Counted from the stretch's first letter, positions 14,199 through 39,309 are shown. The stretch is 64,000 bases of DNA from an uncultured Bacteroidales bacterium (GCA_963781805.1 CAWAHF010000004.1:1774219-1838218), one strand, 5' to 3'. The notes: generated from the sequence alone by a model not told the origin. Numbers and translations are program-made.

Positions 14199-15137
14199 AT
14201 GAAGAAAATAAAAGTTATTCAGATTTTTTTTGCAATAGTATTATTAGCAGCTTGTGGAGGAAATAAATCAGCGAAAAAGGAATCGATGAAAGGAACTATC
14301 AATATTGATGGTTCAAGCACAGTATATCCTTTATCTGAAGCTGTGGCTGAGGAATTTCGTACATCGTATCCAGACGTTAATGTAGCTATCGGTTCATCCG
14401 GAACCGGTGCAGGTTTTAAAAAGTTTGCCCGCGGTGAAACCGATATCTCAGATGCCTCCCGCCCGATTAAGGAAAGCGAAGTGCAGGCATGTAAAGAAAA
14501 CAATATAAGCTATAAGGAATTAACTGTAGCGCTCGACGGAATATCCATCATGGTAAATCCTGAAAATACATGGATTGAGAATATTACAACCCAGGAATTA
14601 AAAAAGATTTGGGAACCTAACAGCACGGTTAAAAAGTGGAGCGATATTCGTCCCGATTGGCCCGCCGAAGATATTCACCTGTATGGTCCAAATACAGCAC
14701 ATGGCACCTACGATTTCTTTACGGAAGTCATACTTGGTGAATCAGGAGCAAGCCGTTCCGATTACAATGCTGTGGCCGATTACAATGTAGGTATTCAGGG
14801 AATAAGCACGGATAAATATGCGCTTGGATATTTCGGTCTGGCGTATTACGAAGAAAACAAAGACAAATTAAAACTGGTGGGTGTGGATAATGGAAACGGA
14901 CCTGTAAAACCGTCGCTTGAAACCGTAAAGGACGGAACCTATGCACCATTGTCCAGACCGCTGTTTATTTATATTAACAGTGCATCAGTACCCAAGAAAG
15001 AATTGGTCGAATTTGTAAATTATTACATTAAAAATTCAGGACAGCTTGCCAAAGAAGTTGGTTATATTCCGCTCCCTCAAAGTGAATACGATGATCAATT
15101 AGCCAGCTTTAGCCAGTTTACTGCCATGACCAAATAG
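14199..15137 (+). CDS. pstS: Phosphate ABC transporter substrate-binding lipoprotein
   Basis: Lipobox [35 protein letters not shown]. Confidence 0.95.
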
Positions 15138-15147
15138 TCAGTATTGC

Positions 15148-16044
15148 ATGGATGCCATTTTCAGAATGAGAAAATTAAAAGAGATAATAATAGAAAAGGC
15201 ACTGTTATTCAGTGCCTTAATTACTATTTTTACCACCCTTGGAATTATCTGGGTTCTCTTTGCTGAATCTTTCTCTTTTTTCAGAGAAGTTTCAATAATA
15301 GATTTTCTCACCGATACCAAATGGACCCCTTTATATGCCGAAAAACATTTTGGCATTCTTCCCCTGATTACAGGGACCCTTCTTACGACTTTTATCGCTG
15401 TTGCCGTCGCACTGCCCACCGGATTGACCATTGCAGTTTACCTGAATGAATATGCGCCGGCAAGATTCGGCAAATCAATCAAGCCCATGCTAGAGATTCT
15501 GGCGTCGGTTCCAACCGTAGTCTATGGCTATTTTGCGCTGATTGTGGTTACGCCGTTTCTTCAAAAAATTTTCCCGATGATGTCGGGTTTTAATGCGCTC
15601 TCACCCGGAATTGTTATGGGGATTATGATCATCCCTTTTATCTCATCCTTAAGCGAGGATGCATTGCGGGCAGTGCCGAATTCATTGAGGGAAGCAGCTT
15701 ATGGTATGGGGTCAAGCCGCTTTCAGACTTCATTCAAAGTGTTGGTTCCAGCTGCTTCATCGGGAATTATTTCTTCGGTGATTCTGGCATTATCAAGGGC
15801 CATAGGTGAAACGATGATTGTAGCCATTGCTGCCGGACAACAACCCCGTTTAACGTTGAATCCGCTGGTACCAATTGAAACCATTACTACCTATATTGTT
15901 CAGGTTAGTTCGGGCGATGTTCCCAATAATTCCCTGGAATTTAAAACAATTTTTGCAGCCGGTTTTTCCTTGTTCATTCTCACCTTCATTTTGAATAATA
16001 TCAGTTTCTGGATTAACAAAAAATTCCGCCAGCAATATGAATAA
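15148..16044 (+). CDS. pstC: Phosphate ABC transporter permease
   Basis: LASVPTVVYG, EAAYGMG EAA motif, SRAIGETM. Confidence 0.95.
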   Translation: MDAIFRMRKLKEIIIEKALLFSALITIFTTLGIIWVLFAESFSFFREVSIIDFLTDTKWTPLYAEKHFGILPLITGTLLTTFIAVAVALPTGLTIAVYLNEYAPARFGKSIKPMLEILASVPTVVYGYFALIVVTPFLQKIFPMMSGFNALSPGIVMGIMIIPFISSLSEDALRAVPNSLREAAYGMGSSRFQTSFKVLVPAASSGIISSVILALSRAIGETMIVAIAAGQQPRLTLNPLVPIETITTYIVQVSSGDVPNNSLEFKTIFAAGFSLFILTFILNNISFWINKKFRQQYE

Positions 16045-30989: not shown

Positions 30990-33809
30990 ATGAAAAAATT
31001 ATTTACAATTTTAGCTGCAGTATTGTTAACCGCAGCAGGATGGGCCCAAAGCCCGGGGAAAATGAGTTATCAGGCAGTAGTAAGAGATGCAAGTGATAAT
31101 CTGATACCAAGTACAACAGTGGGAATGCAAATTAGCATACTGCAAGGCTCAGCAAGTGGAACAGCAGTTTATATCGAAACACAAACTCCAACCACCAATG
31201 CCAATGGTTTACTGAGTTTAGAAATAGGAACAGGAACTACCAGTGATGATTTTAGTAGTATCGATTGGTCGGTAGGTCCCTATTTCATTAAAACCGAAAT
31301 GGACCCAACAGGCGGAACAAATTACAATATTACAGGTACAAGTCAATTATTAAGTGTGCCTTATGCCTTGCACGCCAAAACAGCAGAAATAGTTACAGGT
31401 ACAATTACCGAAACTGACCCAACTTACACTGCAAGTGAAGCAGCCAATATCACAATCTATGATATTACTAATTTGGGTAACTTGTCCGGCGCCAACACCG
31501 GCGACCAGGATTTAAGTTCTTTTGCAGTACAAACTGCATTAGAAGATACCGCGTCAGCTATCAGATCAGCTCTATCCAATGTCAGCGGGTCTATTAGTAT
31601 TGAAACAGATCCTGCTTTTGGAGCAAGCGACGCAGCCAGTATTACTGCAGGGGATATTACAAAATTAGGTAACCTATCGGGCTTGAACACCGGCGATCAA
31701 GATATTTCAGGAATTGCCACCAACGCAAATGCTATTTCTACCATTCAAGGGGAAAAGACAAATCAAGATGCAGCTATTGCAGCTAATACAGCAAAAACAG
31801 GATATACCGAAGCCCTGGTATCGGCAAATACTGCCGTGGCATCCAACACAGCAAAAACAGGAATATCTGCACAACAAGCAGGTGATATCACTGCAAATAA
31901 TGCTAAAACTGGTTATACAGAAGCTTTGGTATCAGCAAATGCAGATGTTGTTGCAAATACAGCAAAAACAGGAATTACAACTGGACAGGCAAATGAAATT
32001 ACAGCCAATACTGCGAAGGTTAGCTACCCTGCTGCTGATGCAACAAAACTTGCAGCAATTACAGGCGCCAATACAGGCGATCAGGATATTTCCGGCATAG
32101 CAACCAATGGTTCATCAATTACAACTCTTCAAACAGAGCAAACCACGCAGAATACTGCTATTGCGTTGAATACAGCAAAAACAGGAATATCTGCACAACA
32201 AGCAGGTGATATCACTGCAAATAATGCTAAAACTGGTTATACAGAAGCTTTAGTGTCAGCAAATGCGGATGTTGTTGCAAATACAGCAAAAACAGGAATT
32301 ACAACTACACAGGCAAGTGCTATTATAAGCAATACAGACGACATTGAAACCAATGCTTTTGCAATTTTAGATGAAGTTGCCCGCGCCACAGCAACCGAAG
32401 GAATAACTGTAGATGATATAGCAATACTCGAAGTGGGACAAGTTTCACAGGATCAAGCTATTGCTTTAAACTCTATAAAAACAGATATTAATTCAGACGG
32501 CATTACAGTCAATACTGTCACAATTTTAAATGAAGTTGCCCGCGCCACAGCAGCCGAAGGAGTGACTGCAGATGATATAGCAATACTCGAAGCAGGCCAA
32601 GTCTCACAGGATCAAGCTATTGGTTTAAACTCTGTAAAAACAGATATTAATTCAGCCGGCATTGAAACCAATGCTGTCACAATTTTAAATGAAGTTGCCC
32701 GCGCCACAGCAGCCGAAGGAGTAATTGCAGATGATATACTTATACTCAGAGATGTGCATATCACTCAAGAAACAGCTATTGCATTAAATACTGCAAAAAC
32801 AGGCATTACAACCGCACAAGCAAATGAAATTACTGCCAGTACTGGCAAAGACACCACAGGCATTTACCATGCTAATAGAGTAGCACTTGATTTGGTTTCA
32901 GGCACAAACACCGGCGACCAGGATTTAAGTTCTTTTGCAGTACAAACTGCATTAGAAGATACCGCGTCAGCCATCAGATCAGCGATTCCCGATGTCAGCG
33001 GGTTTTTAACTTCTGAAACCGACCCTGTGTATGGTTTATCGATAGCTGCAGGCATAACAGGAGCCGATACAACCAACTGGAACAATGATTTGGTAGATGA
33101 TGCTGATGCTGATACCACAAATGAAATACAAAATATCAATCAGGTTTTGATAAAAGGAAATGATGCAAATGGTAACAACCTTGTTAATACGGGGAAAATA
33201 GGTGTGGGAACGGCTTCACCTAATGCAGAATCATCCATGGAAATAGCAACTGCCCTTCCGGTTATTTTTCCTTCAATGACACAGTCAGAAGTTAACGCAA
33301 TTGCTACTCCTGTAGAGGGCATGGTTCAGTTTAATGCAGACGCTCATAAGTTGCAGGTGTATGCTATGCTCACCGACAATGCATCTGTTTTAAATGAGAT
33401 ATTCCTGAACAATAGTTCAGGTCCTTATAATTTTATACTGGATCAATCGATTACTTCTCCCATTGATGGACAAGTGGTTGCGATTGAAATAATGTATAAG
33501 GATGTTGATGGAGGGGAACCTTTCGTTGATTTTTTTGTAAATGGTGAATACCAAGGTATGCAGTTAATGCCTAGTTATACACAATTTACCTGGCATACAT
33601 TTACAATGTCAACGCCGGTTCAGGTAACTGCGGGTATGCCGTTTTATATTGAATTCTTCGGACCTGGAGTTGATTTTCATGAATTTGCGACGAATAGTAA
33701 TTATCCCGGTGGGTCAGGATGTTGTTTTGCTTCTGGCGACGATGATTTATTGTTCAGGGTTCATATTCAGCCTAACGCTGGTTCTTATGGATGGCAGAGT
33801 ATGCATTAG
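30990..33809 (+). CDS. Secreted fibre-like repeat protein (939 aa) without a T9SS CTD
   Basis: SPI signal; QSPGKMSYQAVVR...SVPYALHAKTA N-domain; NTGDQD, ANTAKTG and EVARATAAEG repeats; GKIGVGTASP; distinct C-terminal beta-rich domain. Confidence 0.75.
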   Translation: MKKLFTILAAVLLTAAGWAQSPGKMSYQAVVRDASDNLIPSTTVGMQISILQGSASGTAVYIETQTPTTNANGLLSLEIGTGTTSDDFSSIDWSVGPYFIKTEMDPTGGTNYNITGTSQLLSVPYALHAKTAEIVTGTITETDPTYTASEAANITIYDITNLGNLSGANTGDQDLSSFAVQTALEDTASAIRSALSNVSGSISIETDPAFGASDAASITAGDITKLGNLSGLNTGDQDISGIATNANAISTIQGEKTNQDAAIAANTAKTGYTEALVSANTAVASNTAKTGISAQQAGDITANNAKTGYTEALVSANADVVANTAKTGITTGQANEITANTAKVSYPAADATKLAAITGANTGDQDISGIATNGSSITTLQTEQTTQNTAIALNTAKTGISAQQAGDITANNAKTGYTEALVSANADVVANTAKTGITTTQASAIISNTDDIETNAFAILDEVARATATEGITVDDIAILEVGQVSQDQAIALNSIKTDINSDGITVNTVTILNEVARATAAEGVTADDIAILEAGQVSQDQAIGLNSVKTDINSAGIETNAVTILNEVARATAAEGVIADDILILRDVHITQETAIALNTAKTGITTAQANEITASTGKDTTGIYHANRVALDLVSGTNTGDQDLSSFAVQTALEDTASAIRSAIPDVSGFLTSETDPVYGLSIAAGITGADTTNWNNDLVDDADADTTNEIQNINQVLIKGNDANGNNLVNTGKIGVGTASPNAESSMEIATALPVIFPSMTQSEVNAIATPVEGMVQFNADAHKLQVYAMLTDNASVLNEIFLNNSSGPYNFILDQSITSPIDGQVVAIEIMYKDVDGGEPFVDFFVNGEYQGMQLMPSYTQFTWHTFTMSTPVQVTAGMPFYIEFFGPGVDFHEFATNSNYPGGSGCCFASGDDDLLFRVHIQPNAGSYGWQSMH

Positions 33810-33849
33810 TAACACGAATTATTTACGAGTTAAGAAAATTTACTTTTAT

Positions 33850-33880
33850 AAGGGCCCTTCAGGAATGAAGGGCTCTTTTA
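33850..33880 (+). terminator. Intrinsic terminator after the fibre gene
   Basis: AAGGGCCCTTCA-GGAA-TGAAGGGCTCTT followed by T-rich sequence. Confidence 0.7.
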
Positions 33881-33959
33881 TATTTATAACAGCAAATCTC
33901 CCGGCTAAGCGAGGTCTGCAACTTCTATTCACCCAATCTGGTCCAAGATTATGAAAAAC

Positions 33960-34168
33960 AAAAAACTGGTTCAGGCTTAACGAAGTGTAGCTTGGACCTT
34001 TTTTGTTTTTGTGCTTACAGTCACCTGCCTTGTCAAAATTTGTAACTGCAACGCATTAAAGAGTTAAAAACCTTCTGCCCCCTCACATGGCGAGTCTGTG
34101 AGTTGTTCCTTTTCTGACGCTGGCATTTTGTCCGTGTCCTACCCTGCACATGTAAAGATTTATAACTT
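33960..34168. repeat. Dispersed non-coding repeat, copy 1
   Basis: 33960-34109 matches 37994-38143 with about 12 mismatches in 150 bp; 34142-34168 matches the second module at 38165 and 38931. Confidence 0.9.
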
Positions 34169-34345
34169 ATGCAGACATCAATTCCAACCTTTATGATAGA
34201 TGAAGCAAAGGTTTTCCCGAAGGAGGTAAAAAGCATTTAAGTGGTGACCCACAACGAGAGGCCGCTAAAGATGAGGTAAAATTGCTTCGTCGGGAGAATG
34301 ATGATTTTACAAAAGCATGCTTTTATTCAGCTTCCGGAATTAATA

Positions 34346-34681
34346 TTAATTGACACTCAAATCAACAATTTCTGCCTTGGGTGCATTTTTTCTTACGGAA
34401 GCAATTCCATTATCCCGCCCCTGCGTTGAAGTGTACATTTGACTTGTGCCAATAATTTGAGTATTAGCAGCAGTCAGATTAAAATAATAACTTCCGTCTT
34501 TAGCTACTTCTGAAATGAACATTTTCTTTTTAGAGCAATTGGCCTTAACTGACACTATTCCGTTTTGGCAAGCCGATTTTGATGTATAGCCCTGGCTCGT
34601 CATTATGATCTCTCCGTTTGGAGCTTTTAGATTAAACATGAAGTTTTCGTCTACTCTTTTAGAAATTTCAAATTTTACCAT
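34346..34681 (-). CDS. YegP family (DUF1508) protein
   Basis: Two repeats FNLKAPNGEIIMTSQGY and FNLTAANTQIIGTSQMY. Confidence 0.92.
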   Translation of the reverse strand: MVKFEISKRVDENFMFNLKAPNGEIIMTSQGYTSKSACQNGIVSVKANCSKKKMFISEVAKDGSYYFNLTAANTQIIGTSQMYTSTQGRDNGIASVRKNAPKAEIVDLSVN

Positions 34682-35221
34682 GATTGTTGAATTTTAATGT
34701 TTTCTGACTATGTAATAAAGGTGAGCATTTCTATAAGGAATAGTATTACATAATATTGAAAATATGTTATATGATTCACACATTTGAAAAGAGTTACCAT
34801 GTAAATAAATTTTAGCCAATTTAGTTCGCAATTCCCCCGCTGGCGCTCTCCCGGCATATTCTGTCGGGATATTTAGCGTGTCTTTAATTTTCCCTGTTAA
34901 ATATCATACCAATTCATGATATGTGTCATCCTAAATAAAGTTTTGTTCGAGAATAATAAGCTAACTTTAATACTTAACAGATAATTCTAAACAAAATGAA
35001 GGAAGGAAGTTGAGAAACCAATGTAATTAAACAAGTGCCTTGCTTTTGTTAGTAATCGTATCTTCAATACTACAGACACAAAAACAATTACCACCTTAGG
35101 AAGAAAAATTTTGGGAAGCTTTTGCTCTGTAACTTATTACTTTGGATAGATGGTTTATAAAACTAATACCGGAGCAATAGTTTCGATAAACAAATTAATT
35201 AAATAAATTAATGAGATAAAA

Positions 35222-36565
35222 ATGAAAATTTTAAGTTTCATAAGTATGGTGATATTTATGAGTTTTTTTTTTCTGCTTAACAATAGTTGCCGGAAGGACA
35301 TCTGCGATAATACTATAAGTAAAAGTGTTTACACAATCGCAGTACTTTCCGACATTCACTACATGGATCCCTCATTGCTGCCGGACACTGGCAGTTCAGC
35401 ATTTAAGGAGTACCTGAAAACCGATGGAAAACTCCTTGCCGAAAGTGATGCGATCATGAAAGAGGTTATTTGGGAATTGCTCAATGCAAAACAAAAACCC
35501 GACCTTGTACTTATTCCGGGCGATTTGACAAAAGACGGTGAATTGGTCAGCCACCAGTCGGTTTCCAAATACCTTTCCGAGTTAATAAACGCAGGCATCA
35601 AAGTGAGGGTAATTGATGGTAATCACGATATAAATAACCAGCACCCTTATATGTACATCGGCTCCACTACCCAAAAAGTGGCAAATATTGATGCAGACGG
35701 ATTTAAAACTATTTATGAAAACTGTGGCTACAGCGATGCGCTTTATACAGACCCCAGCTCGCTCAGCTATGTATCTGAACCTCTGCCTGGTCTGTGGCTT
35801 ATTGCGATCGATGCCTGCAACTATTGGGATGGCATTCCTTATAATTTAATGACAGGCGGGAGTATAAAGCAGGAAACAATGACCTGGATATTGCCACGCT
35901 TAGCCGAAGCAGAGGCTAAAGGGAAAACTGTATTCGGAATGATGCATCACGGGATACTTAATCATTTTACAGATGAGGATAGCCTGTTTAAAGGATTTGT
36001 AGTGGATCGATCGTCAACGGTATCCGACTCGCTCATGACCGCAGGATTAAGGATCATGTTCACCGGACATTTTCATGCCAACGACATTGTAAAAAAGACA
36101 TCTGGCAATACATTTTTATTCGACATTGAGACAGGTTCTACCGTTTGTTATCCTTGTCCGTACAGGATGATAACCTATTTAAAGGATTCGGCCCTGATCA
36201 TTTCAACTAATATCATTACACAAAATGATTACCCGTTACCCGGAGGACAAACATTTTCGGATTATATTACGCAAAAGGCCTATGTTAACCTGGATAGCCT
36301 GTTAACCAGGGCTTTTACCAGTTCTAATTGTACCTACGAAACGGCCAGGATATTTGCTCCCCGTATCAGGAATGCAATGATGGCTCATTTTGCAGGCGAC
36401 GAAAGACTCTTTTCGACCCACGAGATGGACTCGATCGATCTAACAATTACCCGGTTAGGGTCAAACTTTTCATGGCTCCGCACATATTGTATCAGCCTAT
36501 GGAACGATTTGCCTCCCACTGACAATTCGTTGATGATTTACCTGAAATCGGGTGCTTCGTATTAA
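35222..36565 (+). CDS. Calcineurin-like metallophosphoesterase, lipoprotein
   Basis: Lipobox NNSC; SDIHY, PGDLTKDG, GNHD, MHH, TGHFH motifs. Confidence 0.88.
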   Translation: MKILSFISMVIFMSFFFLLNNSCRKDICDNTISKSVYTIAVLSDIHYMDPSLLPDTGSSAFKEYLKTDGKLLAESDAIMKEVIWELLNAKQKPDLVLIPGDLTKDGELVSHQSVSKYLSELINAGIKVRVIDGNHDINNQHPYMYIGSTTQKVANIDADGFKTIYENCGYSDALYTDPSSLSYVSEPLPGLWLIAIDACNYWDGIPYNLMTGGSIKQETMTWILPRLAEAEAKGKTVFGMMHHGILNHFTDEDSLFKGFVVDRSSTVSDSLMTAGLRIMFTGHFHANDIVKKTSGNTFLFDIETGSTVCYPCPYRMITYLKDSALIISTNIITQNDYPLPGGQTFSDYITQKAYVNLDSLLTRAFTSSNCTYETARIFAPRIRNAMMAHFAGDERLFSTHEMDSIDLTITRLGSNFSWLRTYCISLWNDLPPTDNSLMIYLKSGASY

Positions 36566-36801
36566 TTAGTGCTTGCCCGAAAAGTCCAGTGTCGGTTAAG
36601 AAAATGGAGTTTTCTTGCCGACACCAGGTAAGTATAATTGGATGTTATGTGACATTAAAAATAAATGATTCATATAATTCGAAGAATATTACCAGAATAT
36701 TACCCATGGATCATTGTGTAATCAAGCAGAATGCTGCCGTTTGAAAATATTTAAACTATAAAAATAAGGGAAGAAATAACCTTTAATAAAAATTATTTAT
36801 C

Positions 36802-37890
36802 ATGAAAATAAAAAGAAATCTATTCCTGTTTTTTTTATTTGCAATTGCAAGCCTTATTGTAATCCCTTATGGATGCAAGAAAAATGATGACACGCAGGGG
36901 CCAACGCCTGTTAAAAAAAAGTATGTCTGGGTTGTAGGAGCTGTTGACAGCACATCTTACGGAAAGATTTTGTTTTCATCGGATGGAGGTGATACATGGT
37001 TAAGACAGGGTGAAGGATCGGCTGCTTTACAGGGAACTCTTTTATTTGATGTGTGGGCTGTCGATACAAATGATGTGTGGGCTGTCGGTATTAATAGCAG
37101 CATCATAAAAACCAATGATGGTGGCAATAGATGGGTTCGCATTACAAGTCCAGAAATCCCGCCGGCTATAGTTTTTCAATCCATTTCCATGGTTGGAAAC
37201 AATGATATCTGGATATGCGGTGAGAGCGGAACTGTAATTAATTCAAGTAATGGGGGAAATACCTGGACCATTTTTGACCCTAATTTCTTTCACAATGGAT
37301 TGATGCAGGGTATTTATGCCATAGATGCACAAACAGTCTATGTAGTTGGAGGTTATCGTATAAGTAACGGGGCCAAGGGTTTTATAGCCCATACGGCAGA
37401 TGGAGGTCAAACATGGGATTCTATCATCCCTGAAAATAATTATAATCGGAATGAATGGCTTGGGGTAAAAGCGACCGATAAGAACCATATTGTTGTTTAT
37501 GGAAAGAGTGCACATTATGTATTTAGTAATGATGCCGGAGCAACGTGGAAAAATGATTCGGTACCTGACACCGGTGGCGGTGGTATAGGAGGAGCCGACA
37601 TGAATTGTCTCGCTATGATAGATGCACAAACCTGGTGGGGAGCATTTGACTATGATGTCATTTTTATCACTACTGATGGCGGTACATGGACAAAACAAAC
37701 TTCAGCGGGACCAGGCGCTATGTGGCTTTATGGAATTGATTATTATGACAGGAATTTGGCTGTTATCGTTGCTTTAAGTAGCGTGTTACCGACTGGCAAG
37801 ATCATAAAAACCTCCAATGGAGGTGATGTTTGGGAATTAAAATATAATTCCAGGTCAGCGTTATTCAAAATATCCTTTATTAAAAATTGA
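36802..37890 (+). CDS. YCF48-like/BNR-repeat beta-propeller lipoprotein
   Basis: Lipobox YGC; Asp-box repeats SSDGGDTW, TNDGGNRW, SSNGGNTW, TADGGQTW, SNDAGATW, TSNGGDVW. Confidence 0.8.
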   Translation: MKIKRNLFLFFLFAIASLIVIPYGCKKNDDTQGPTPVKKKYVWVVGAVDSTSYGKILFSSDGGDTWLRQGEGSAALQGTLLFDVWAVDTNDVWAVGINSSIIKTNDGGNRWVRITSPEIPPAIVFQSISMVGNNDIWICGESGTVINSSNGGNTWTIFDPNFFHNGLMQGIYAIDAQTVYVVGGYRISNGAKGFIAHTADGGQTWDSIIPENNYNRNEWLGVKATDKNHIVVYGKSAHYVFSNDAGATWKNDSVPDTGGGGIGGADMNCLAMIDAQTWWGAFDYDVIFITTDGGTWTKQTSAGPGAMWLYGIDYYDRNLAVIVALSSVLPTGKIIKTSNGGDVWELKYNSRSALFKISFIKN

Positions 37891-37993
37891 TTTCGGCTAT
37901 TACTTTGATAATGAACCCGAATTGAAATTGCTTCTAGACAATCGAAAACAATAGTTAGAAAATAGAAATTAAACGCCTGGCTGGCGCGGGCCC

Positions 37994-38217
37994 AAAAAAC
38001 TGGTTCAAGCTTAACGAAGTGTAGCTTGGACCTTTTTTGTTTTTGTGCTTATAGTCACCTGCCTTGTCAAAATATGTAATTGCAACGCATTAATGGGTTA
38101 AAAAACGTCCACCCCCTCACATGGCGAGTCTGCGACTTGTTCCCTGACTGGTGCGGATATTTTGCCTGCACAGGCACAGATTTATGACTCCTTTCCCTAC
38201 TGCCCTGCCCCTGCAAT
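37994..38217. repeat. Dispersed non-coding repeat, copy 2 (longest)
   Basis: 150-bp module shared with 33960; 53-bp module shared with 38931. Confidence 0.9.
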
Positions 38218-38228
38218 TTTAGAAAAGT

Positions 38229-38243
38229 TACCAATATTTGGTA
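38229..38243. promoter_or_regulatory. Likely antitoxin operator palindrome
   Basis: TACCAA-TAT-TTGGTA, 22 bp upstream of parD. Confidence 0.5.
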
Positions 38244-38265
38244 TATCTGAGAAAAATATGAAGAC

Positions 38266-38517
38266 ATGAACAAGAATACGTCAATATCACTTGGAGATTA
38301 TTTCGAAACTTTTGTTCGAAGGAGTATTTCAATAGGTAGATTTAAAAATGCGAGTGAAGTGATACGAGCGGGTTTGAGATTATTGGAAGAAGAAGAATCT
38401 AAAGTTTTGGCATTAAAAACTGCTATTCAGGAGGGTATTGACAGTGGGATTGCCTACGACTTTGATTCACAAAAGCATCTTGATTCTGTAAAAGTAAAAA
38501 AGAGATTGAATGGCTAA
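38266..38517 (+). CDS. parD: ParD-like ribbon-helix-helix antitoxin
   Basis: NTSISLG...GRFKNASEVIRAGLRLLEEEE; overlaps the toxin start. Confidence 0.88.
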   Translation: MNKNTSISLGDYFETFVRRSISIGRFKNASEVIRAGLRLLEEEESKVLALKTAIQEGIDSGIAYDFDSQKHLDSVKVKKRLNG

Positions 38518-38809
38518 ATACTTCCTGACCAACAATGCCGTTGACGATTTGACTGAAATATGGAATTATACTTTTGATGAATGGTCGGAGCAACAAGCTG
38601 ATAAATATTACTACCTGTTAATTGATAACTGTAAGGATATTGCTCAAAATCCAAAACTTGGGAAAAACTATGCTGGGATTATGACAATTTTGTTTGGATT
38701 AAAAGTAACAAGATATATTATTTTCTGCAGGAAATTAAGTGCGAACGAAATTGAAATTACAAGGATTCTACATGAAAGAATGGATTTAAAAAGTAGAATC
38801 AAAGAATAA
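38510..38809 (+). CDS. parE: RelE/ParE family toxin
   Basis: YFLTNNAVDDLTEIWNYT...WSEQQADKY...IEITRILHERMD. Confidence 0.9.
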   Translation: MAKYFLTNNAVDDLTEIWNYTFDEWSEQQADKYYYLLIDNCKDIAQNPKLGKNYAGIMTILFGLKVTRYIIFCRKLSANEIEITRILHERMDLKSRIKE

Positions 38810-38869
38810 AAAACTACACTCAATCTAATAGAATGCTCCGTCGGATAACCTGACGGAGTGCGCCTTTCA

Positions 38870-38899
38870 CCTGTCTGTCTGCCTACCGGCAAAGGCAGG
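38870..38899. repeat. CCTGYC...GGCAGG REP-like hairpin
   Basis: CCTGTCTGTCTGCCTACCGGCAAAGGCAGG; related copies at 39222 and 40259. Confidence 0.55.
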
Positions 38900-38930
38900 T
38901 ATGCAGCTGTTCATTAGGATTTGGGACAAC

Positions 38931-38985
38931 ACCCTGCAGAGGCAAAGATTTATAACTCCTTTCCCTCCTGTCCTGCTCCTGCAAT
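38931..38985. repeat. Dispersed non-coding repeat, copy 3 (short module only)
   Basis: ACCCTGCAGAGGCAAAGATTTATAACTCCTTTCCCTCCTGTCCTGCTCCTGCAAT resembles 38165-38217. Confidence 0.85.
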
Positions 38986-39309
38986 GTACTAAACTTTGTT
39001 ACCTCCCGAAAATTTGTTTTTTACCGAATTATCATTTGCTTTTATTTCCCGTACAGAAAGTTGGAAATTGAAGAAAGTAAGGATCGGGCACGAAAATATA
39101 ACAACCGCCGTAATATACATGCATATTTCAAACCATGAATTAAAAAAGTTATATGAAAATTAAACGCAATTTGCTGTATACCTATAGAACAATACCATGA
39201 TTGGTTAGAGATGGAGCCGCTCCTGCCTCTTGGCAGCCAGGTATTACACTGATTGAACAGATTTGTACTGATCTGTGATCATCTGTGATATCAGCGTTCC
39301 AATAACGAA

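Follow-up and report, generated by a model that had tools for sequence, protein, structure and literature searches.

A non-coding repeat at the edges of parDE and yegP modules in an uncultured Bacteroidales bacterium: a possible mosaic of terminator, REP and promoter-like sequences

We analysed a 64,000-nt stretch of DNA (the window; positions 1774219-1838218 of contig C4) from G000, a 6.3-Mb genome of an uncultured Bacteroidales bacterium. Metagenomes from salt marsh and sediment carry near-identical sequence. In one part of the window, small accessory genes, including the toxin–antitoxin pair parDE and the DUF1508 gene yegP, are set between copies of a non-coding repeat. An earlier inspection of the same DNA (the sequence-only reading) had proposed that this repeat delimits exchangeable cassettes. 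The repeat is built of two modules: A, which opens with a hairpin and T-run (hp) and continues as a spacer (A-mid), and B, the last copy of which runs into a promoter-like repeat, P (Table 1). Instead of the single element or recombination site first envisaged, we find a mosaic, composed of a terminator-like hairpin family, a decayed repetitive extragenic palindromic (REP) sequence of the type associated with REP-associated tyrosine transposases (RAYTs), and a spacer.

The overall layout was confirmed. The two long copies (33959-34130 and 37993-38164) are homologous over 172 nt with 88% identity, and their 150-nt core, for which about 12 mismatches had been reported, contains exactly 12 and no gaps. 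The hairpin GGTTCA(A/G)GCT-N11-AGCTTGGACC with its T-run is present at 33968-34011 and 38002-38045. The ~55-bp module B occurs three times, as described, the first copy (B1) being partial and all three direct; B2 and B3 are 89% identical. The full two-module unit stands at two sites, one of them truncated, and the third site has B alone. In the antisense open reading frame through the repeat, the copies differ at 13 codons, 12 of them non-synonymously. The repeat is thus non-coding, in agreement with the earlier argument that no protein is under constraint. The term 'dispersed' holds for the hairpin part, with 13 genome copies by nhmmer; the first ~50-95 nt are the sole part of the unit that recurs genome-wide, whereas neither the other ~120 nt of A nor any part of B (three local copies) recurs in the genome outside the window copies. 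That the copies bracket cargo was also borne out: parDE, with its left edge at 38212-38219, directly adjoins the last base of B2 (38217), and the yegP block takes over where B1 stops, its limit at 34169 falling one base after the truncation point. Copy 1 of hp sits between a convergent 939-aa surface-protein gene and yegP, 117 nt past the stop codon, and copy 2 begins 79 nt past the stop codon of a BNR/YCF48-like gene. The 939-aa gene has internal repeats of its own (window 31461-33034), comprising three 159-nt, six 72-nt and two 185-nt units.

Table 1. Components of the repeat copies and of the modules beside them (window coordinates; R1, covariance model of the hp family; G004, a genome of a different genus)
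Feature	Position	Strand	Details
hp copy 1	33926-34020	+	R1 match 95.7 bits, full length; nhmmer E value 6e-22; fold -19.6 kcal/mol; upstream half-site CTGGTCCAAGATTATGAAAAAC; arms 33968-33977 and 33989-33998; T-run 33999-34011
A-mid copy 1	34012-34130	+	Locus-only spacer; sole genome match is copy 2
Decayed REP in A-mid copy 1	34078-34109		CCCCCTCACATGGCGAGTCTGTGAGTTGTTCC; aligns to RAYT-flanking REPs
B1	34141-34167	+	First 27 nt of B; cut where the block common to G004:C40 begins (34169)
yegP/DUF1508 block	34169-34898	-	Gene 34346-34681; 82-94% identity to G004:C40
hp copy 2	37969-38054	+	R1 match 73.5 bits; degenerate upstream half-site; arms 38002-38011 and 38023-38032; T-run 38033-38045
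A-mid copy 2	38046-38162	+	Decayed REP at 38112-38143, CCCCCTCACATGGCGAGTCTGCGACTTGTTCC
B2	38163-38217	+	Full B copy; 92% identity to B of G004:C6
parDE module	38212-38823	+	Promoter and operator; parD 38266-38517; parE 38510-38809
Filler	38824-38930	+	107 nt; two small hairpins, CTCCGTC..GACGGAG and CTGCCTACCGGCAAAGGCAGG
B3	38931-38985	+	Continues directly into P, like B in G004:C6
P	38986-39185	+	Promoter-like repeat; single copy in G000

The stem that had been flagged within module A, CCCCCTCACATGGCGAGTCTG(C/T)GA(C/G)TTGTTCC (34078-34109 and 38112-38143), aligns to a REP family of the form CCCC-N(2-5)-CTGGCGCAAG-N-CTTGTGCC. In G000, inverted REP pairs (at 715257/715914, 809824/810481 and 5577521/5578212) flank three RAYT genes, which lie inside the paired CCCC..CTGGCGCAAGCGTCCGCTTGTGCC sequences at 715319-715840, 809886-810407 and 5577593-5578177. 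These RAYTs are IS200-like Y1 transposases with the motifs SHVH/SHLH and YIHNNP/YIHFNP. An alignment of 18 sequences, including both window copies, showed that the REP hairpin is 94% paired, with compensatory change in 6 of 10 pairs, which none of 500 shuffles reached, and with an invariant G.T at pair 4. The tag consists of CCCC followed, after 2-5 nt, by CTGG or ATGG, and is neither GTAG nor CGTC. About 11 clear REP copies are present in the genome, in addition to the two decayed ones in the window, which themselves flank no RAYT. Because the same 2 nt of the 5′ arm are missing from both, the window REPs are decayed duplicates of each other and not independent insertions. Their closest kin is a variant, CATGGCGCAAGTCTGCGACTTGTGCC, found in five copies within 6 kb on contig C68 of G004, an uncultured Bacteroidales metagenome-assembled genome of a different genus; each of these copies lies just 3′ of a small gene. 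Judged by sequence and architecture, the flagged stem is an orphan, decayed member of the CCCC-tagged REP family. The element, which had initially been left without assignment, thus maps in part to a REP family that flanks RAYT genes. A palindrome near yefM-yoeB at 27.3 kb was considered as a further member and rejected, as it is not of the CCCC-CTGG type. Separately, a RAYT gene at C4:4899386-4899952 carries a 21-nt hairpin insert (CTGCCTGCCGGCAAAGGCAGG), and the only other genome copy of this hairpin lies in the window at 38879-38899, in the filler between parE and B3.

The ~95-nt hp consists of a half-site, CCCC-N-CTGGTCCAAGCTTGTAAAAAAAC, the hairpin GGTTCAAGCT..AGCTTGGACC and the T-run. 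The family was collected within G000 with an nhmmer profile and, with the covariance model R1, over 77 genomes of the taxonomic family spanning 8 genera. R1 detected hp patchily, in 11 of the 77 genomes but in 7 of the 8 genera, with 18 copies in G004, 12 in G000, 7 in G001, 6 in G079 and 4 in G002 (G001-G003 belong to the same genus as G000). Copies are grouped, co-oriented and spaced 1-5 kb apart, and most start 0-30 nt past the stop codon of a co-oriented gene. Among the products of the genes ahead of them are lipoproteins, immunity proteins encoded behind Rhs toxin tips, toxins of the RelE/ParE and HicA-like types, LemA and an aldo-keto reductase. The 10-bp stem is 87% paired and is followed directly by TTTTTTGTTTTTG. 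Owing to a U.G at one stem pair, present in 10 of 11 copies, the plus strand folds better than the minus strand (-19 against -10 to -14 kcal/mol, more stable by 5-9 kcal/mol). Stable stem-loop, U-run and location just past a co-oriented gene together make up the layout of an intrinsic terminator. The position, strand asymmetry and T-run indicate that hp is most likely the terminator of the upstream gene and travels with accessory genes.

Several features connect hp with the REPs. Its half-site has the same tag and first arm as the REP family (CCCC-N3-CTGG-NN-CAAGC), an hp copy is found no more than 2.5 kb from 6 of ~13 RAYT loci (~0.13 expected), and one RAYT gene (5303301-5302912) is cut short by an hp element. 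On these grounds hp is probably a REP derivative. The possibility that it is the REP of the r2-type RAYT was ruled out, as that RAYT has a different flanking REP (CCCCAMTRGCGCGCGTTTAAC...). In two hp copies at C4:5211385-5212275, a ~30-nt hairpin (TCTGCCTTCATTGCATTTCGGCWGACAGGCA) interrupts the 5′ arm of the hp stem, a repeat within a repeat. Elsewhere, hp copies (5302842 and 5344320), together with Rhs toxin and immunity genes, enclose five tandem tyrosine-recombinase gene pairs (C4:5306575-5340473), all on the minus strand with a period of ~8 kb.

Module B was sought as an exact degenerate pattern in genome contigs, one genome per species for ~185,000 species, and in 241 million metagenome records, and was found solely in G000 and G004. 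All other matches were chance 18-24-mers, those from Nanoarchaeota lying in a conserved coding gene, and B was accordingly rejected as a widespread site. On contig C6 of G004, an hp copy, ~130 nt, B and a ~190-nt P follow one another without interruption, ahead of a gene for an extracytoplasmic function (ECF) sigma factor; window positions 38940-39182 are 81% identical to 14982-15225 of that contig. P (~150-190 nt) contains a TTTG box, a ~19-nt spacer and a TAcaTTTA (TAnnTTTA-like) box, and resembles a Bacteroidetes promoter. G004 has at least 41 copies of P in co-oriented arrays. The eight that we inspected are all upstream of a co-oriented gene, and these genes are varied (ECF sigma factor, GNAT, epoxide hydrolase, DarT/DarG-like proteins and lipoproteins). 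The G004 P copies gave no Rfam match. On contig C40 of G004 (L088 1-8600), five unrelated co-oriented genes are separated by homologous units of ~300 nt, made up of a CCCC-tagged REP hairpin, a second hairpin, a spacer and P, and the contig encodes no tyrosine recombinase. Arrays of unrelated genes with homologous intergenic units between them thus occur in related genomes, which supports the sequence-only reading on this point. A, B and P were not found in the three same-genus genomes. In the reading that we favour, B is the upstream flank of P, and the full unit of hp/REP, spacer, B (here and in G004:C6) and P may be viewed as a terminator-to-promoter intergenic cassette, by analogy with bacterial interspersed mosaic elements (BIMEs). 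A further repeat family lies just downstream in the window (39243-39299, GATTGAACAGATTTGTACTGATCTGTGATCATCTGTGATATCAGC); it has at least nine further genome copies, five of which are clustered at C4:5381029-5381827.

The bracketed modules have their own histories. The parDE module of ~610 bp has 88-91% DNA identity to parDE in unrelated contigs of distant Bacteroidota, one of them labelled Saprospiraceae. In all five distinct, unrelated contexts examined, homology starts at 38212-38219 and ends at 38810-38823, and these identical limits point to recent horizontal spread of the unit. Its left edge adjoins B2, and its right edge is parted from B3 by the filler, which shows no similarity to A above shuffled controls. 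For yegP, copies set among unrelated genes elsewhere match a core (34296/34338-34792/34802) at 88-90% identity, and in G004:C40 the yegP block terminates directly at a P copy. A KLLRRENDD-like peptide had given the impression of an IS3 OrfA remnant at 34170-34345; this was set aside, since these positions fall within the block that G004:C40 also has and, in part, within the yegP 3′ flank of other loci.

We favour, with roughly even confidence, the reading that the repeat is a BIME-like mosaic intergenic unit (terminator, REP, spacer, promoter), the copies of which are recombination scars left by the gain of small modules. The idea of a cassette delimiter survives in that the repeat is non-coding, bears hairpins and has copies at the edges of mobile modules, but the delimiter is a mosaic, and nothing points to machinery dedicated to cassettes. 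Divergence among the local copies is 11-12%, compared with 8% for B between genera. Because they have diverged as far as B has between genera, and because A, B and P are all missing from the three same-genus genomes, a recent duplication at this locus is unlikely; it is more probable that the copies came in one by one, together with the modules. The simplest route, and the one we prefer, would be homology-facilitated illegitimate recombination, which is established for bacteria with natural transformation. Homology in hp/A would have anchored a donor fragment containing A, B and parDE, and an illegitimate joint would have attached the other end of this fragment immediately ahead of a resident B-P. 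This would leave the donor B (B2) and the resident B (B3), 11% apart, around parDE, and the yegP block would have been joined inside B1 in a comparable manner. Conserved intergenic units would then act as portable homology, with no need for a dedicated recombinase.

Several observations weigh against this interpretation. There are two independent joints at B (B1 and B2/B3), so that B could be a preferred site for something specific, and the G004 arrays between unrelated genes are regular and more orderly than random scars would predict. Covariation in hp is slight, with two pairs showing compensatory change and a score reached by 27 of 500 shuffles. Neither an empty B-P site in the same species nor an A-B-parDE donor was found, and metagenome contigs of the organism (salt marsh, low depth) show the filled form only, with no joints. 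As for the same-genus genomes, pncA and the gene for a glycogen debranching enzyme, which flank the region, are absent from G001-G003, and no orthologous site can therefore be defined in them.

Four alternatives were weighed. Under a null model, slippage or unequal crossing-over would have produced local segmental duplications, followed by drift, with no horizontal transfer and no role for the repeat. The confinement of A-mid and B to a 5-kb stretch, with all copies direct, fits such a history. However, tandem duplication would have duplicated the intervening genes too, the divergence of the copies makes the event an old one and yet the same-genus genomes lack all three repeats, B2 is not more similar to B3 (89%) than to the B copy of G004 (92%), and the bracketed modules are themselves horizontally spread; we consider the null model unlikely. 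It is likewise unlikely that the repeat moved and the genes did not, with hp-A-B being a non-autonomous element, similar to a REP/REPIN or a miniature inverted-repeat transposable element (MITE), that was mobilized by a RAYT or another transposase and inserted upstream of parDE and beside yegP. Such an element would account for the two REP-type hairpins in the unit, the clustering of RAYT loci near hp, the RAYT gene truncated by hp and the nested hairpin insertions within hp copies. Yet A-mid and B have no copy elsewhere in the genome, no terminal inverted repeats or target-site duplication bound hp-A-B, and the flanks of the copies have nothing in common. In addition, the REP in A, short of two stem nucleotides in both copies, is probably inactive, the 11-12% divergence leaves no sign of recent activity, and the nearest RAYT is ~1 Mb away. 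Origin from a plasmid or phage was also considered and rejected, as blastn returned no match.

A third possibility is that B, or the whole of hp-A-B, is a site-specific recombination site (similar to attC, the rAID-1 repeats or pdif) at which a recombinase encoded elsewhere in the genome moves single-gene cassettes. Direct B copies bracket parDE, the yegP block abuts a cut B, and in G000, G001, G004 and G079 unrelated accessory genes are separated by hp and P in co-oriented arrays. The genome has 29 tyrosine-recombinase matches (PF00589), including the five tandem pairs bracketed by hp copies, and rAID-1 shows that Bacteroidales do have arrays in which repeated intergenic sequences go together with a linked recombinase (bioRxiv 10.1101/471110). 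The nearest of the 29, however, is more than 200 kb from the window. In G004, contig C60 is the one place where a recombinase lies beside the homologous P arrays, and none of the arrays examined was linked to an IntI-type gene. B itself occurs in two genomes only, and inspection of B1, B2, B3 and the G004 copy revealed no conserved palindrome, dyad or core, and neither the R''/L''-L'/R' palindrome nor the GTTRRRY core of attC. None of the five unrelated contexts of parDE has a B-like flank, B2 and B3 differ by 11%, and, with parDE carrying its own promoter and operator and yegP inverted, the modules are not promoterless co-oriented cassettes. We therefore judge a dedicated site to be quite unlikely. 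Very unlikely, in our estimate, is that A-B acts as an RNA, either a small RNA or a cis-regulatory leader (a 5′ untranslated region for parDE or for the P-driven gene, or an antisense RNA ending at hp). In its favour, this is a conserved non-coding region, a minus-strand transcript could end at hp, and B2 is immediately upstream of the parDE promoter. However, the REP stem is not alike in the two copies and hp-A-B shows no global fold (z-scores of -0.9 on the plus and -0.3 on the minus strand). A search of Rfam 15 returned tmRNA as the sole window match at gathering score; with the cut-off relaxed to E ≤ 10, the best matches in 33800-39200 had E values of at least 1.3 and fell far below threshold. 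No TAnnTTTG box of a Bacteroidetes promoter is present within A or B on either strand, and the genomes with the closest parDE copies lack B.

The interpretation that we favour, of a mosaic unit whose copies mark module gain, may be extended to the family as a whole, although we hold the extension to be doubtful. Taken jointly with portable homology, it would propose that standardized units, with a REP-type hairpin or terminator behind one gene, a spacer, and P ahead of the next, let single-gene modules (toxin–antitoxin pairs, yegP, GNATs, hydrolases and immunity genes) be gained, lost and exchanged among genomes without a dedicated integrase. General or RAYT-assisted recombination would then yield an integron-like outcome, of which the window would be a small decayed case and G004:C40 a well-kept array.

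If the favoured reading is true, the locus is an ordinary but well-resolved case of REP and terminator hairpins building mosaic intergenic regions in Bacteroidota, where REP/RAYT systems are poorly described. For specialists it offers a CCCC-tagged REP family that covaries clearly and has cognate RAYT genes, a terminator-like family of 95 nt moving with accessory genes, and base-precise limits for a ~610-bp parDE module with ~90% identity across distant Bacteroidota. Should terminator–spacer–promoter units indeed anchor module exchange, this would explain cassette-like arrays that lack a recombinase, such as those of G004, and it is the G004 arrays that most merit follow-up.

Among known systems, the integron and its integrase-less relatives, clusters of attC sites lacking integron-integrases (CALINs), come to mind on account of direct repeats around small accessory genes, including a toxin–antitoxin pair, with no integrase nearby, as in CALINs, and of relatives that have homologous repeats between arrayed unrelated genes. 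B differs in lacking the attC palindrome and core, the cassettes are self-promoted and not all co-oriented, and the repeat is confined to two genomes. The rAID-1 arrays are defined by a 5′ XerD-like recombinase, two or more co-directional low-GC immunity genes and repeated intergenic motifs (bioRxiv 10.1101/471110). They belong to the same order and likewise combine accessory-gene arrays with repetitive intergenic sequence, and several hp copies follow Rhs-tip immunity genes; the present locus, in contrast, has no XerD-like 5′ recombinase and no co-directional low-GC immunity array, its genes being of mixed orientation with a GC content of 32-42%. The pdif sites of Acinetobacter plasmids are 28-bp XerC/XerD sites that, in alternating orientation, bracket toxin–antitoxin modules in varied contexts. 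B has no such dyad, and the locus here is chromosomal.

The closest likeness is to REP/BIME-RAYT systems, with short extragenic imperfect palindromes, an unpaired conserved 5′ tag, compensatory change, inverted pairs around a Y1 transposase gene in the same genome and orphan copies at gene 3′ ends. As in Enterobacteria and Pseudomonas, hairpins and other motifs together build up mosaic intergenic units. The tags of the described REP superfamilies are GTAG or CGTC (PMC3733652); the CCCC-N(2-5)-CTGG tag found here is analogous to both and identical to neither. Copy numbers of ~11-13 per family are low beside the hundreds in Pseudomonas or E. coli, the window copies are decayed by a 2-nt stem deletion, and the unit adds a T-run terminator-like hairpin and adjoins a promoter-like repeat; RAYT activity on these sequences is putative. 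RAYT subclasses 2.4 and 2.6 are rich in Bacteroidetes (PMC6006769). By its sequence features and by analogy, the locus would be placed with the REP/BIME-RAYT systems, here in Bacteroidota.

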